A DNA stretch of 64,000 nt from Escherichia phage vB_EcoM_FJ1 (MZ170040.1), one strand, 5' to 3'; counted from the stretch's first letter, positions 11,780 to 51,987 are shown. Numbers and translations are program-made. Notes: a model not told the origin generated them from the sequence alone.

Positions 11780-13462
11780 TTAAACCATTACAGTAAATCG
11801 ACCAACTTTCTTCATTTGAAGATGCTGACCATATTCTTGCGGGTCATGGTCTTTATGCGAAATTATAAAAACATTAGTGTTTTTCATTGAATTTATAATA
11901 TTAGCTACACCTTTAATACCTTCGGCATCAAATGACCCATCAAACACTTCATCGAGTATTAATGTACTAATACTAACACCAGATACAATAGAAGCAATAT
12001 CACGCCAAGTAAATAAAAGAGCAACATCAATTCTTGCTTTTTCACCTTCACTAAATGAAGCATAACTAAAATCTTCGCGACCACGGGATTTAATTGTCTC
12101 ATTAAATTCTTCATCTAATGTAAACACATAATCCGCTTCCATTATTTTAAGATAATGGTTAATCTGCTTATTAAATAATGGAATGTACTTTTTAATAATA
12201 GCACCTTTAATACCAGAATCTTTGAGCATATCAGTCAAAATTCCTCGGTGGTATTTTTCCATTACTAAATTAGTTTTTGTCTTAACAATTTTATCAAGTT
12301 CTTCTTGAAGCAGTGCTATTTCATCAGCATGGTCAATAAACTCAGAAGATGCTTTTTCTATAGCCGCTTTAACTTTTTTAGCTTTATCTACTGCTGCGAT
12401 CAGAGATTGCTTTTTATTGCGAATATCATTTGCCAACGACTGCTGAGTTTTAATATTATCTCGGTATTCATCAACAAGAACTTTTAAATTATCACGATGT
12501 GTTGAAAGCTGTTCAAACGAATGCGTGCATTCAGAAACTTTATCTTTAATTTTAGAAACAACTTTATCACCGGAACTCAATTGTGACAAACAGGTTGGAC
12601 ATAATCCACCTTCGTGATACATATTAATGACTTTATTATATGAGTCAATTTTTGATTTAATTAAAACTGCTTCTTGACCGATTTTATTAAATGCATCAGT
12701 CGGGTCTTCATCTAAAACAATATTAACTAATCTTTCATTAGCTTCTTCTATTTCCGATTTTAGCGTTCTAGCTTCTTTTGCCAAATCATCATACATATTT
12801 TGCAGACGAATAAGGTTTTCACCAGTTAATTTTTTCTGGCGTTCAACGTTATCATTATATATTTTAATTTGTTGGATAATACTATCTTTTTTAACATCAA
12901 GCACTTGGTTTTGTGAATTTAATTCGCGTATTAGTGCTTTATTAAGCTTATCCATTTCAGCTAATGTTCCTACCTCGAGCAGGTCTTCCACAAGCTTTCT
13001 TCGCGCAGGGGTCGACAAACCCATGAAAGGGGTATACCCTGCTGTACCAAGGACAACAATCTGCTTGAAACTGGCATATGACATTCCGATAAGCTGTTCA
13101 AATTCTGCTTGGAAATCTTTACTGCTGGCAGATTCATTAAGACGTGTACCGTTAACGGTGATTTCGAAAACGTTTGGTTTTTGTCCTCTTTTGATATAGT
13201 ACTTTTTCTCATCATATTCCATCCACAGTTCAACTAAAAGTTCTTTCTTATTTGTGCTGTTTATTAATTGACCTTTCTTTACATCACGAAATGGCTTGCC
13301 AAAAAGCCCAAATGTGATGGCTTCTAACATAGTAGACTTACCACCGCCATTTCGTCCAGTAATAAGAGTTTTTTGAACCTTATCTAATTGAATGTCAACT
13401 CCATTTTGACCAACTGACATTATATTTTTATATTTTACTCTATTAAGTTTAAATGATTTCAT
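11780..13462 (-). CDS. 46: recombination nuclease subunit gp46 (Rad50/SbcC-like ATPase)
   Basis: 560 aa; Walker A GRNGGGKST, zinc hook CPTC, signature and Walker B (LILDEVFDGSFD) motifs. Confidence 0.9.
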   Translation of the reverse strand: MKSFKLNRVKYKNIMSVGQNGVDIQLDKVQKTLITGRNGGGKSTMLEAITFGLFGKPFRDVKKGQLINSTNKKELLVELWMEYDEKKYYIKRGQKPNVFEITVNGTRLNESASSKDFQAEFEQLIGMSYASFKQIVVLGTAGYTPFMGLSTPARRKLVEDLLEVGTLAEMDKLNKALIRELNSQNQVLDVKKDSIIQQIKIYNDNVERQKKLTGENLIRLQNMYDDLAKEARTLKSEIEEANERLVNIVLDEDPTDAFNKIGQEAVLIKSKIDSYNKVINMYHEGGLCPTCLSQLSSGDKVVSKIKDKVSECTHSFEQLSTHRDNLKVLVDEYRDNIKTQQSLANDIRNKKQSLIAAVDKAKKVKAAIEKASSEFIDHADEIALLQEELDKIVKTKTNLVMEKYHRGILTDMLKDSGIKGAIIKKYIPLFNKQINHYLKIMEADYVFTLDEEFNETIKSRGREDFSYASFSEGEKARIDVALLFTWRDIASIVSGVSISTLILDEVFDGSFDAEGIKGVANIINSMKNTNVFIISHKDHDPQEYGQHLQMKKVGRFTVMV

Positions 13463-49499: not shown

Positions 49500-49637
49500 A
49501 GTTTTGTGAAAAAATTTTTAAAAAGTTTTAGGGAATTCTAGGGCAGGGAGGGGAAATCAAAGGATAGGATAATATATTATAAAGGGTATAAACTAAATGA
49601 TGCCTAGAGAGGCCCGGAAAGGCCTAGATACCAAAAA

Positions 49638-49659
49638 GCCCCAACCTTTTGGTCGGGGC
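49638..49659 (-). terminator. hairpin terminator (copy 1 of a duplicated 31-bp element)
   Basis: GCCCCAACC-TTTT-GGTCGGGGC preceded by AAAAA; near-identical copy at 50194-50215. Confidence 0.55.
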
Positions 49660-49667
49660 TAAGAATG

Positions 49668-49937: not shown

Positions 49938-50142
49938 CTAAACTTTTCCAGGCCATACTAACTGCATTTCCCGTAAATCCTTCCGCTTTCATGTCGCGTG
50001 CGAACTGGAATCGCGATTCATCGGAAGCATCTTTATAGGAATATTTACCCGCGGCAATGGCTGCTTTTGCGACAGCTTGAATTTCGGTGCTAGATGCTTC
50101 ATTTAACACCGCTTCATTTAAAAATTGAGCATATGATTTCAT
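49849..50142 (-). CDS. internal-protein-like protein with CTS-like N-terminus
   Basis: 97 aa beginning MKSYAQFLNEA (CTS-like M-K-[ST]-[YF]-x-[EQ]-F-[IL]-x-E-A), Ala/Lys-rich; late promoter TATAAATA 37 nt upstream. Confidence 0.55.
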   Translation of the reverse strand: MKSYAQFLNEAVLNEASSTEIQAVAKAAIAAGKYSYKDASDESRFQFARDMKAEGFTGNAVSMAWKSLVATGAAFAKASGKPAPKADPKAAQEKKYC

Positions 50143-50178
50143 CTTATTTCCTGTTTTAATTCGTGGTTTTAATATACT

Positions 50179-50186
50179 TATTTATA
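50179..50186 (-). promoter_or_regulatory. late promoter (TATAAATA)
   Basis: Minus-strand TATAAATA at 50186-50179. Confidence 0.5.
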
Positions 50187-50193
50187 CTAAAAA

Positions 50194-50215
50194 GCCCCAA
50201 CCTTTCGGTCGGGGC
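50194..50215 (-). terminator. hairpin terminator (copy 2)
   Basis: GCCCCAACC-TTTC-GGTCGGGGC; ends the stable-RNA/tRNA-Arg transcript region. Confidence 0.55.
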
Positions 50216-50530
50216 TAAGCCTTGCGGCAACCTTGTCGGGGTTCCACCTGCTAAGGCAAGTGTTTGTACGAAACGCCGGGACTTGAACCCGGTTATTAAG
50301 TAGTTGACGCTACTCAATATTTTTAAAAGGCCATATCTCGACCATATCCGAACGTTCCGTCAAAAACGCTACTCGGCTTACGGCAAAGATATTTCCTCGA
50401 ATCGATAATTCGGTGCGCCGTTTCTGCTGTGATGTAAGAGGGCATCAATAAACGCAAAGATTATTAACGCAATTCCTTACTCAGGGAGCATCAGTCCGAC
50501 GACTTACCGGTAGCGACCCGGTTTCTTGTC
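50216..50530 (-). ncRNA. stable small RNA region downstream of tRNA-Arg (T4 rnaC/rnaD-like), including a tRNA-like element
   Basis: About 315 nt with no ORF between tRNA-Arg and a terminator; minus strand 50359-50266 has a 7-bp acceptor-like stem (CGGAACG/CGTTTCG) and T-arm CCGGG-TTCAAGT-CCCGG but no canonical anticodon arm. Confidence 0.4.
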
Positions 50531-50607
<77 letters not shown>

Positions 50608-50610
50608 TAG

Positions 50611-51276
50611 TTAAAATTTCATTTTTCGACCTTTAAACCATCCTTCTGGAATTGGGTCAGTTTTCTTAATACGTTTAGAAACTTTTTCATCTAATGAATG
50701 AATCCACATCATACCAAATTGGGAATTCTTTTCACCTTTTTGGTGATTATTTTTAGCATGAATTTCTTTCATTTTATTAATAGTTTCAAGAGTATGATGC
50801 TTATTTAAAAATCGGCTATTATTTAAAAATTTTTCTTTGTATTCAGGAGTTGACCACAAACGGTTAAATACATTTGAACCATTTTTACGATATTTTTCTT
50901 GAAGTAAAATATCATTTTTAAAACGTGACTTAAACGATTTAGCTCCTTTTAAACTAGCGTCTTTCTTCTGATTTAGCATCTCAGGAATATTTATATGATC
51001 CCATCCACCTTCACCGCCAAGTTTTAAATTATACACATCAGGTCTATTTAAAAACTCTTCTGTGACAATATTTTTCTCGGCTTCAAGCATAGATTCTTTA
51101 TCATCAAAATACTCTAATATTTCTTTAGAAAAATTTTCTATGCCATACTTATCTTGGGCTCTTTTTAATAATTTACCAGAACCCATATATCCATCATCTA
51201 AATTTTCGGTAGAATGCACACCAATATAAATTTTATTATTAATTTTATTTGTTATTTTATAAAGATAAAAATGCAT
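50611..51276 (-). CDS. segB: GIY-YIG homing endonuclease SegB-like
   Basis: ATG at 51276 gives 222 aa beginning MHFYLYKITNKINNKIYIGV (GIY...YIG); lies inside the tRNA cluster as T4 segB does; the longer track ORF would overlap tRNA-Tyr. Confidence 0.7.
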   Translation of the reverse strand: MHFYLYKITNKINNKIYIGVHSTENLDDGYMGSGKLLKRAQDKYGIENFSKEILEYFDDKESMLEAEKNIVTEEFLNRPDVYNLKLGGEGGWDHINIPEMLNQKKDASLKGAKSFKSRFKNDILLQEKYRKNGSNVFNRLWSTPEYKEKFLNNSRFLNKHHTLETINKMKEIHAKNNHQKGEKNSQFGMMWIHSLDEKVSKRIKKTDPIPEGWFKGRKMKF

Positions 51277-51322
51277 ATCAGTCCCTAATAAAGAACTGAG
51301 CGTCTCACGACGAGTCATAAAT

Positions 51323-51409
51323 TGGTGGGGAGTGGTGGAGTCGAACCACCCGAGTCGCAATGACAATGGATTTACAGTCCACACCGCTACCTCTACGGGA
51401 TAACTCCCC
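51323..51409 (-). tRNA. type-II tRNA, anticodon GUA (tRNA-Tyr)
   Basis: Manual fold: acceptor GGGGAGT/ACTCCCC, anticodon loop CTGTAAA, long variable arm, T-arm GGTGG-TTCGACT-CCACC, CCA encoded; resembles E. coli tRNA-Tyr (GACUGUAAAUC, GUCAU). Confidence 0.65.
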
Positions 51410-51418
51410 TAATTAATT

Positions 51419-51495
51419 TGGTGACCCAGACCAGATTTGAACTGGTAACCTTTCCCTTATGAGGGGACTGCTGCTAACCATTGAGCTACAGGGCC
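51419..51495 (-). tRNA. tRNA with CAU anticodon (Ile lysidine-type, or Met)
   Basis: Acceptor GGCCCTG/CTGGGTC with one U-U mismatch, anticodon loop CTCATAA, T-loop TTCAAAT, CCA encoded; same position as T4 tRNA-Ile. Confidence 0.6.
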
Positions 51496-51496
51496 T

Positions 51497-51572
51497 TGGT
51501 GCTGATTGACGGAATCGAACCGCCGACCTTCTCATTACAAGTGAGTTGCTCTACCTACTGAGCTAAATCAGC
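51497..51572 (-). tRNA. tRNA-Thr (UGU)
   Basis: GCTGATTTAGCTCAGTAGGTAGAGC...CTTGTAAT...GGTTCGATTCC...AATCAGCACCA; canonical cloverleaf. Confidence 0.85.
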
Positions 51573-51574
51573 AA

Positions 51575-51661
51575 CGGAGGCGATAGGATTTGAACCTATG
51601 AGTCGCCGGAGCGACTGCCGGTTTTCAAGACCGGTGCATTAAACCACTCTGCCACGCCTCC
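51575..51661 (-). tRNA. tRNA-Ser (UGA), type II
   Basis: GGAGGCGTGGCAGAGTGGTTTAATGCACCGGTCTTGAAAACCGG... with long variable arm; matches T4 tRNA-Ser as recalled. Confidence 0.9.
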
Positions 51662-51663
51662 AG

Positions 51664-51737
51664 TCTCCGTGGCAGGATTTGAACCTACGACATTCTGCTC
51701 CCAAAGCAGACGCTCTACCAAACTGAGCTACACGGAG
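51664..51737 (-). tRNA. tRNA-Pro (UGG)
   Basis: Acceptor CTCCGTG/CACGGAG, anticodon loop TTTGGGA, T-loop TTCAAAT. Confidence 0.85.
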
Positions 51738-51747
51738 TAAATTAAAT

Positions 51748-51821
<74 letters not shown>

Positions 51822-51826
51822 AAATT

Positions 51827-51913
51827 TGGTGCGAGAAGTGGGACTCGAACCCACATGGAAATCATTCCGCAGCATTTTAAGTGCTGTGCCTTTACCAATT
51901 TGACCATTCTCGC
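51827..51913 (-). tRNA. tRNA-Leu (UAA), type II
   Basis: GCGAGAATGGTCAAATTGGTAAAGGCACAGCACTTAAAATGCTGC... with long variable arm; matches T4 tRNA-Leu as recalled. Confidence 0.9.
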
Positions 51914-51914
51914 G

Positions 51915-51987
51915 CTGGGAATAAAGGACTCGAACCTTTGCATCCTGGAATCAAAATCCAGTGCCTTACCAACTTGGCTAATTCCCA
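51915..51987 (-). tRNA. tRNA-Gln (UUG)
   Basis: Acceptor TGGGAAT/ATTCCCA, anticodon loop TTTGATT, T-loop TTCGAGT; abuts tRNA-Leu. Confidence 0.85.

Follow-up and report, generated by a model that had tools for sequence, protein, structure and literature searches.

Covariation supports a tRNA-like four-way junction with paired hairpin loops in phage rnaC, and rnaD forms a wider, separate family

The two stable RNAs encoded at the end of the tRNA cluster of Escherichia phage vB_EcoM_FJ1 (MZ170040.1) correspond to rnaC and rnaD of phage T4, and base-pair covariation among their homologues argues that rnaC is a tRNA-like, cloverleaf-type four-way junction and that the shorter fold drawn in a preliminary description of this DNA is wrong. 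Two hairpin loops of rnaC appear to pair with one another, and we hold the secondary structure and this loop-loop (kissing) contact, taken jointly, to be very probable. The other RNA, rnaD, belongs to a family of its own that is not tRNA-like and extends into a second phage subfamily. The window is the whole stretch of 64,000 nucleotides analysed; coordinates are counted from its first letter, and both RNAs are encoded on its minus strand.

The interval 50216-50530 (315 nt) is non-coding and is flanked by a tRNA-Arg gene and an intrinsic terminator. It had been described beforehand as a non-coding stretch that probably held the T4 species 1 and species 2 RNAs. Both points were borne out, the first by the tRNA calls, the terminator and an ORF scan, and the second by the GenBank records of T4 (NC_000866) and RB33, in which tRNA-Arg, rnaD ("species 2 RNA") and rnaC ("species 1 RNA") are annotated at the aligned positions. 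The rnaD and rnaC coordinates given here are those of T4 carried over through the alignment, in which identity to T4 was 97.8% for rnaC (136 of 139 positions) and 96.6% for rnaD (115 of 119 aligned positions). Given these identities and the two annotations, the identification of the genes is correct, and we consider it virtually certain that the interval holds the orthologues of T4 rnaD and rnaC and forms the tail of the Tequatrovirus tRNA transcription unit. The rnaC and rnaD genes are already known, and the interval reveals no new element.

The gene order is that of T4, with rnaC as the last RNA gene of the unit. The encoded CCA of tRNA-Arg (UCU; 50531-50607, called by ARAGORN and scoring 71.1 bits with the Rfam tRNA model) is followed by rnaD (118 nt, 50412-50529, placed by the T4/RB33 annotation and by our model R1). 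A 6-nt spacer, GAAUUA (50406-50411), separates rnaD from rnaC (139 nt by the T4 annotation, 50267-50405, placed by T4 homology and model R2). Then come a 48-nt 3' trailer delimited by conservation (50217-50264) and the terminator of the tRNA/stable-RNA unit (50193-50216), whose 10-bp stem contains 7 G-C pairs and runs into UUUUU; all of these lie on the minus strand. Genes, synteny and lengths (139 nt for rnaC, 118-119 nt for rnaD) are thus shared with T4. As to differences, rnaC departs from T4 at three positions, two of which fall in the T-loop (window UUCAAGU, T4 UUCGAAU), the tail after rnaD reads CACCG where T4 has CACCA, and the window has an extra tRNA-Tyr upstream. This tRNA-Tyr (GUA; 51323-51409, minus strand), absent from T4, sits beside a CAU tRNA and scores 30.3 bits versus 54-73 for its neighbours. 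ARAGORN and Rfam gave nine minus-strand tRNA genes (50531-51987) versus eight in T4, and a segB-type homing-endonuclease ORF (listed as 50611-51384) parts the two tRNA subclusters. Rfam also returned sub-threshold matches to Plastid-ycf2 and Plastid-psbl-rps4 antisense to tRNA genes (50533-50607, plus strand; also 12396-12470, plus strand, of the collected locus L052). Such matches are artefacts, caused by antisense tRNA sequence included in the two models.

Searched alone, the interval matched 794 phage records, with 100% identity across 312 nt in the case of phage vB_Eco_BGP, and a megablast search with 50150-50620 returned 774 phage records, nearly all from Tequatrovirus and its relatives, with a top identity of 98.7%. 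No Rfam 15 family matched rnaC or rnaD, either in the window or in the divergent homologues of L052, and BLAST found no host homologue of either RNA among 5,426 E. coli genomes. The preliminary description had looked to covariance models and to conservation in related phages for support; the Rfam tRNA model gave none in the interval, even at E<=10, and the second expectation held, homologues being conserved across related phages. In T4 infection, RNA-seq identified both RNAC and RNAD among the late RNAs, and a northern blot confirmed RNAC (PMC9697503); papers of 2010, 2022 (PMC9697503) and 2025 state their function as unknown.

The rnaC fold was judged on an alignment of 28 sequences. Homologues were gathered from the phage collection, IMG/VR and one metagenome scan, and came from Tequatro-, Mosig-, Gapriver-, Kanagawa-, Teguna-, Karam-, Moon-, Gelderland- and Jiaodavirus and from Slopekvirus-like Klebsiella phages. 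Wider sampling (IMG/VR plus the one metagenome, filtered with the rnaC model) added just one sequence, of a lineage already represented, and most of 73 metagenome pattern matches were not rnaC. Model R2 scored 165.7 bits in the window across all 140 positions. The minimum free energy structure of the window rnaC (-50.2 kcal/mol, z = -4.6) agreed with the RNAalifold consensus. Over the 52 pairs of this structure 95.5% of alignment cells were paired, versus 38-44% when the partners were slid, and 37 of the 52 showed compensatory change, a level reached in 0 of 500 shuffles.

In tRNA-style numbering, C1 to A76 of rnaC correspond to 50404 to 50265. The acceptor-like helix P1 has 7 bp and pairs the 5' strand CGAUUCG (50398-50404) with 50275-50269, as supported by RNAalifold and covariation. 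P1 contains a tandem U.U (4:69 and 5:68) in 25 of 28 sequences, replaced by U-A/C-G in Tegunavirus and by U-A/A-U in Jiaodavirus, and its pair 3:70 is A-U in 13 sequences and G-C in 15. A long 5' arm of 70 nt (50328-50397) takes the position of the D-arm and is made up of P2 (50397-50395 with 50330-50328), which follows P1 without a spacer, P3 (50392-50373 with 50351-50333) and P4 (50369-50364 with 50357-50352), all drawn from covariation; its 24 pairs are 98-100% paired, with compensatory changes in 21. An A-rich linker leads to P5, a 10-bp hairpin in the anticodon-arm position (50294-50319) with compensatory changes in nine of its ten stem pairs. One nucleotide intervenes between P5 and the T-arm (50276-50292), which has a 5-bp stem and the 7-nt loop UUCAAGU, is 100% paired with two covarying pairs (G-C to U-A in 11 sequences) and adjoins the acceptor 3' strand without a spacer, in the fashion of tRNA. 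The preliminary description was right about this T-arm (CCGGG-UUCAAGU-CCCGG, 50292-50276), which covariation supports. It is also the site of the sole nearby Rfam match, to the 17-nt T-arm of mascRNA-menRNA (15.3 bits, E=3.1, against a gathering score of 42.5).

Measured against tRNA, rnaC has the 7-bp acceptor stem and the T-arm of 5 bp with a 7-nt loop, apart from the tandem U.U, which is unusual for tRNA and counts against the tRNA-like reading. It lacks both a D-arm and an anticodon arm of the tRNA type (5-bp stem, free 7-nt loop). The non-canonical T-loop of one Kanagawavirus group, UGCAUGC, also speaks against the tRNA-like reading. A GG beside the 3' strand of P2 (50331-50332) is kept in nine of ten lineages and is CG in the exception, a Kanagawavirus group (L003, L007 and L018) that is also the only one with the odd T-loop (50281-50287 region), a change of the G.U to C-G type. 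This co-change could reflect a tertiary contact like that of the D-loop and T-loop. Docking of the T-loop on the GG next to P2 was not adopted, because the co-change happened only once in evolution and tandem G.A pairing is an equally possible role for the GG.

The hexaloop of P4, UUGACG (50358-50363), would provide the 5' half of the kissing helix and the hexaloop of P5, CGUCAA (50304-50309), its 3' half. The two loops were exact complements in 28 of 28 sequences (168 of 168 cells paired). As the hexaloops had been unpaired positions in the alignment model, this test was independent of the model. The loops changed together. UUGACG/CGUCAA is the version of most lineages, UUGAUG/CAUCAA that of Tegunavirus, UUGGCG/CGCCAA that of the Slopekvirus-like Klebsiella phages (including the metagenome sequence L174) and UUGCAG/CUGCAA that of Jiaodavirus. 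Double changes occurred in six cells, none of 500 shuffles equalled the observed pairing and slid controls gave 17-51%. Predicted energies of the kissing duplexes ranged from -4.1 to -7.6 kcal/mol. In five genera fetched later both hexaloops were unchanged and the sequence of the P4 stem was different. The P4/P5 covariation fits an intramolecular kiss and dimerisation alike. We found no earlier description of the contact in the literature searched, the structural papers of the 1970s and 1980s lying outside the scope of that search.

With the hexaloops paired, no anticodon-like loop is left free in rnaC. The earlier statement that the RNA has no anticodon arm was half right: the hairpin 50319-50294 does occupy the position, but its stem is 10 bp long and the six nucleotides of its loop are engaged in pairing with another part of the RNA. 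The GUC in the CGUCAA loop of P5 was considered as an anticodon mimic and rejected, as the loop covaries with that of P4. Hairpin loops of 6-7 nt that are fully paired, as would be the case in rnaC, occur in the HIV TAR-TAR* and ColE1 RNA I-RNA II complexes; unlike those complexes, the rnaC loops would lie in one molecule and tie together two arms of a four-way junction.

Several known RNAs combine an acceptor/T-arm module with a body that is not tRNA. In common with the tRNA-like domain of tmRNA, rnaC has paired 5' and 3' ends that form an acceptor stem stacked on a T-arm, a large insert between the 5' acceptor strand and the T-arm, and no anticodon. Unlike tmRNA, it has no G3:U70 pair, tag reading frame or pseudoknot ring, its length is 140 nt versus 260-400 nt, its CCA is usually not encoded, and ARAGORN made no tmRNA call on it. 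YrlA (Y RNA-like), mascRNA and the 3' tRNA-like structures of plant viruses likewise present an acceptor/T-arm module that is recognised by tRNA enzymes, the remainder being non-tRNA. The ends of rnaC are free whereas those of YrlA are not, and the putative kissing-loop lock of rnaC is absent from YrlA, mascRNA and the plant-virus structures. Searches with the YrlA, mascRNA and other tRNA-like models of Rfam gave nothing in the window beyond the T-arm fragment and nothing in the L052 homologues.

The acceptor 3' strand CGUUUCG (50275-50269) is followed by a discriminator-like U (50268) and the tail ACA (50267-50265), so the earlier remark that CCA is not encoded was accurate, the tail in the window being UACA. 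Both G72 and U73 are invariant in every rnaC lineage. The bases after U73 are ACA in the window and most lineages, UCA in Tegunavirus and AUA in ZX14, and CCA is encoded in Jiaodavirus and the Slopekvirus-like Klebsiella-phage group. Hence two lineages encode a tRNA-type U73-CCA, with UCCA present in four sequences (L027, L052, L049 and L174). Against a tRNA-like end stands the encoding of UACA, not UCCA, in the window and most lineages. The invariance of U73 and the CCA of some lineages nonetheless argue that the acceptor end of rnaC is under tRNA-like constraint.

In Karamvirus, Moonvirus, Tegunavirus and Jiaodavirus the gap between rnaC and its flanking tRNAs is 5-8 nt, and in Karamvirus rnaC sits between tRNA-Trp and tRNA-Gly. 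Given this tRNA-like spacing within tRNA arrays, the tRNA machinery probably excises rnaC. An A/U-rich spacer of 5-8 nt precedes rnaC in all lineages, and 15 of 19 sequences have U at position -1. The 5' end given in GenBank, 1 nt upstream of where RNase P would be expected to cut, counts against such processing. By its published consensus (R-AUU-W), the RNase E preference would be satisfied by the spacer GAAUUA, which is A/U-rich and single-stranded. Maturation of tRNAs by RNase P, RNase E and 3' trimming is well established, and the features of rnaC fit it. RNase P would cut on the 5' side and RNase E together with 3' exonucleases or RNase BN on the 3' side. Since some lineages encode U73-CCA, rnaC may in addition be a substrate of the CCA-adding enzyme. 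We regard tRNA-type processing of rnaC as moderately probable.

The preliminary description had proposed a tRNA mimic for the whole interval. This idea survives for rnaC, with a fold other than the one drawn, and fails for rnaD, which makes up 38% of the interval and is not tRNA-like. A model built from 24 rnaD sequences (R1) scored 108.1 bits in the window and gave 44 matches, 40 of them distinct, among the loci fetched. The matches came from Dhaka-, Mosig-, Kanagawa-, Karam-, Moon- and Jiaodavirus, from Vequintavirinae and from several contigs of 140-153 kb, and every one lay inside or beside a tRNA cluster. The Vequintavirinae copies scored 85-105 bits and lay within tRNA clusters (L029 2498-2599, phage UPEC06; L030 2319-2419, phage CR9), which suggests horizontal spread along with tRNA genes. 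Over the 40 distinct homologues 85% of cells were paired versus 33-46% when slid. The predicted rnaD fold, supported by this pairing, comprises a 5' hairpin, H1 (50522-50506), and a long bent hairpin. The long hairpin has a covarying closing helix (GUCGUCG/CGGCG-C-AC, 50503-50497 with 50420-50413), a UCCCUG bulge that is invariant (50487-50482) and an inner hairpin that is lineage-specific (50470-50442); all these elements lie on the minus strand. As the innermost pair of the closing helix 29 sequences have G-C and 11 have C-G, and the inner helices contain many compensatory changes.

The rnaD RNA starts 1-3 nt past the CCA of the preceding tRNA (2 nt past that of tRNA-Arg in the window) and would be set free from the 3' trailer of that tRNA. 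In this it resembles E. coli 3'ETS-leuZ, an sRNA derived from a tRNA transcript that also begins near a tRNA CCA and is released by precursor processing; unlike 3'ETS-leuZ, rnaD is conserved, highly structured, 100-120 nt long and without a known base-pairing partner. The two RNAs can occur apart, rnaC without rnaD in Tegunavirus and rnaD without rnaC in Dhakavirus. When a T4-like phage was adapted to strain ECOR34, a single convergent SNP, located in rnaD, arose in all three lines (PMC12685909); this BW1 SNP lies at genome position 164264. On the scale used in that study, virulence increased from 0.17 to 0.98 (PMC12685909).

The trailer (50217-50264, minus strand; AACACUUGCCUUAGCAGGUGGAACCCCGACAAGGUU...), noted also at L005 1415-1505 and in L041, was near-invariant in 17 distinct sequences. 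A hairpin, CACUUGC-CUUA-GCAGGUG, is predicted within it, and the trailer offers no variation against which to test the pairing. In Dhakavirus, where rnaC is absent, the trailer directly follows rnaD. Together with the terminator, it could be a processing signal or a third small RNA that ends in the terminator. The terminator hairpin AGCCCCGACCGAAAGGUUGGGGCU (50193-50216, minus strand) has a 94% identical copy at 49628-49663, minus strand, about 550 nt downstream and after the next gene, and most related phages likewise have paired terminator copies. Seven nucleotides past the terminator stem, upstream of the next minus-strand gene (ATG at 50142), lies TATAAATA (50179-50186, minus strand), which we take to be the T4 late-promoter consensus.

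The explanation we favour, with moderate confidence in the whole, combines the identity of the two RNAs with the fold, tRNA-type excision and action in trans of rnaC. As its anticodon-like loop would be buried, mature rnaC would display only the acceptor/T-arm branch on a rigid body, and in trans it would occupy a protein that recognises this branch. The likeliest partner would be a host enzyme or a defence toxin that acts on tRNA acceptor ends, a synthetase or EF-Tu being less likely. On laboratory hosts T4 is viable even when its entire tRNA region is deleted, and thus any function of rnaC or rnaD would be conditional. Acceptor-branch mimicry aimed at a host acceptor-end factor fits this host-conditional dispensability and the host-specific SNP in rnaD. 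As the mode of action of rnaC it is a tentative proposal, possible but not probable, and our literature search found no experimental demonstration of an rnaC partner, of its CCA end or of its charging. Examples of decoy targets would be toxSAS/CapRel-type pyrophosphokinases, MenT/AbiEii nucleotidyltransferases and CCA-directed nucleases. We are doubtful of the full conjunction, in which rnaC would be a kissing-locked acceptor-mimic decoy or tight inhibitor, rnaD, a separate RNA family common to Straboviridae and Vequintavirinae, would tune infectivity on particular hosts and both would be RNA-based counter-defence or host-range factors.

The rival that survives best, itself unlikely, assigns the RNAs a role in cis, in which they would secure proper maturation or stability of tRNA-Arg and the adjoining tRNAs by serving as processing handles or by protecting 3' ends, with no function as free RNAs. 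It accounts for the constant location of both RNAs in or beside tRNA clusters, for the start of rnaD 1-3 nt past a tRNA CCA and for the dispensability of the region on laboratory hosts known from the T4 literature. The neighbouring tRNA, however, varies by lineage (Arg, Asn, Trp, Pro or Gly), and each RNA can occur alone, rnaC in Tegunavirus and rnaD in Dhakavirus. Moreover, loops and bulge are invariant across genera while the stems covary, which argues for a specific tertiary fold or a ligand rather than a spacer, and in T4 both accumulate as discrete stable RNAs (PMC9697503).

A little less likely still is that the two are base-pairing sRNAs, the rnaD UCCCUG bulge and the AAAAAU of the rnaC linker pairing with host or phage mRNAs, for example at purine-rich Shine-Dalgarno regions. 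One 2022 paper does term rnaC and rnaD small regulatory RNAs (PMC9697503), and the invariant C-rich bulge of rnaD complements sequences of the AGGGA type. However, no target is known, E. coli genomes contain no BLAST-level match, the most conserved rnaC loops would be consumed by the internal kiss, and neither mature RNA has the Hfq-type end of a terminator hairpin and U-tail.

It is quite improbable that rnaC receives CCA and is aminoacylated, to serve as an amino-acid donor or in a tmRNA-like role. The acceptor/T-arm minihelix, the invariant U73 and the UCCA of two lineages would suit such an RNA, and the T4 tRNAs for Pro, Ser and Ile also lack an encoded CCA and have it added after transcription. 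Most lineages carry ACA instead, there is neither a tag reading frame nor an ARAGORN tmRNA call, and to our knowledge C1-G72 with U73 matches no known E. coli identity set. The supported stem also lacks G3:U70. An AlaRS-type G3:U70 was considered and rejected, as it appears in the discarded stem discussed below alone, the supported stem having A-U or G-C at 3:70.

Highly improbable is the fold first proposed, a degenerate tRNA of about 94 nt (50359-50266) closed by an internal stem of CGGAACG with CGUUUCG and having a very long variable region or an intron. The complementarity exists in the window, 50359-50353 with 50275-50269 over 7 bp including one G.U, and others have been drawn to the same segment. 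In GenBank its exact equivalent is annotated as "tRNA-Lys(ttt)" and as "tRNA-???" in two genomes (G2133 and G9062), and in phage UFV01 ARAGORN reports it as "tRNA-Met(cat)". However, these anticodons are mutually inconsistent, and neither ARAGORN nor the Rfam tRNA model (RF00005) made a call in 50216-50530, the latter even at E<=10. A partner of equal 7-bp quality arises by chance in 18% of shuffles of the upstream 113 nt. Across 21 homologues no pair of the stem showed a compensatory change, the third pair was broken (A.C or U.C) in seven sequences and two further pairs were broken in Tegunavirus. The stem is also incompatible with the covarying P4 helix and the loop-loop helix, and the annotated 5' end of rnaC lies 46 nt upstream of its start. 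On covariation and chance expectation we rejected it: of the acceptor-like closing stem claimed earlier, the 3' strand (50275-50269) stands and the 5' partner (50359-50353), with no compensatory change, falls. A tRNA-Lys anticodon-loop mimic, suggested by CUUUUAA in the linker and by the "tRNA-Lys(ttt)" call in G2133, was also rejected, the UUUU varying to CUCUU, UUCU, UUUG and UUCA.

These GenBank and ARAGORN calls on the 3' two-thirds of rnaC lie at L024 1188-1281 (Lys ttt), L025 1188-1283 (undetermined) and L022 1204-1298 (Met cat), and many other records have "hypothetical protein" CDSs across rnaC and rnaD. The region is systematically mis-annotated as pseudo-tRNAs and hypothetical proteins. 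That the interval encodes small proteins, as those many CDS calls would have it, has practically no chance of being right, given that the sole ORFs are of 34-53 aa with TTG or GTG starts, substitutions track base-pair covariation and not codon periodicity, and indels of 1-2 nt are tolerated.

The reading we prefer, of two structured RNAs with rnaC acting in trans, bears on genes which, though recognised since the early 1970s in a virus that is among the best studied, still have no assigned function. To these the present analysis adds a covariation-backed rnaC fold with a testable 6-bp loop-loop contact, evidence for constraint on the acceptor end and the placement of rnaD in a wider family. 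Together with the published rnaD SNP, the fold, the acceptor-end constraint and the spread of rnaD make a host-specific, possibly anti-defence role directly testable. If that role is true, counter-defence or host-range RNAs would have been present in the T4 genome for 50 years.
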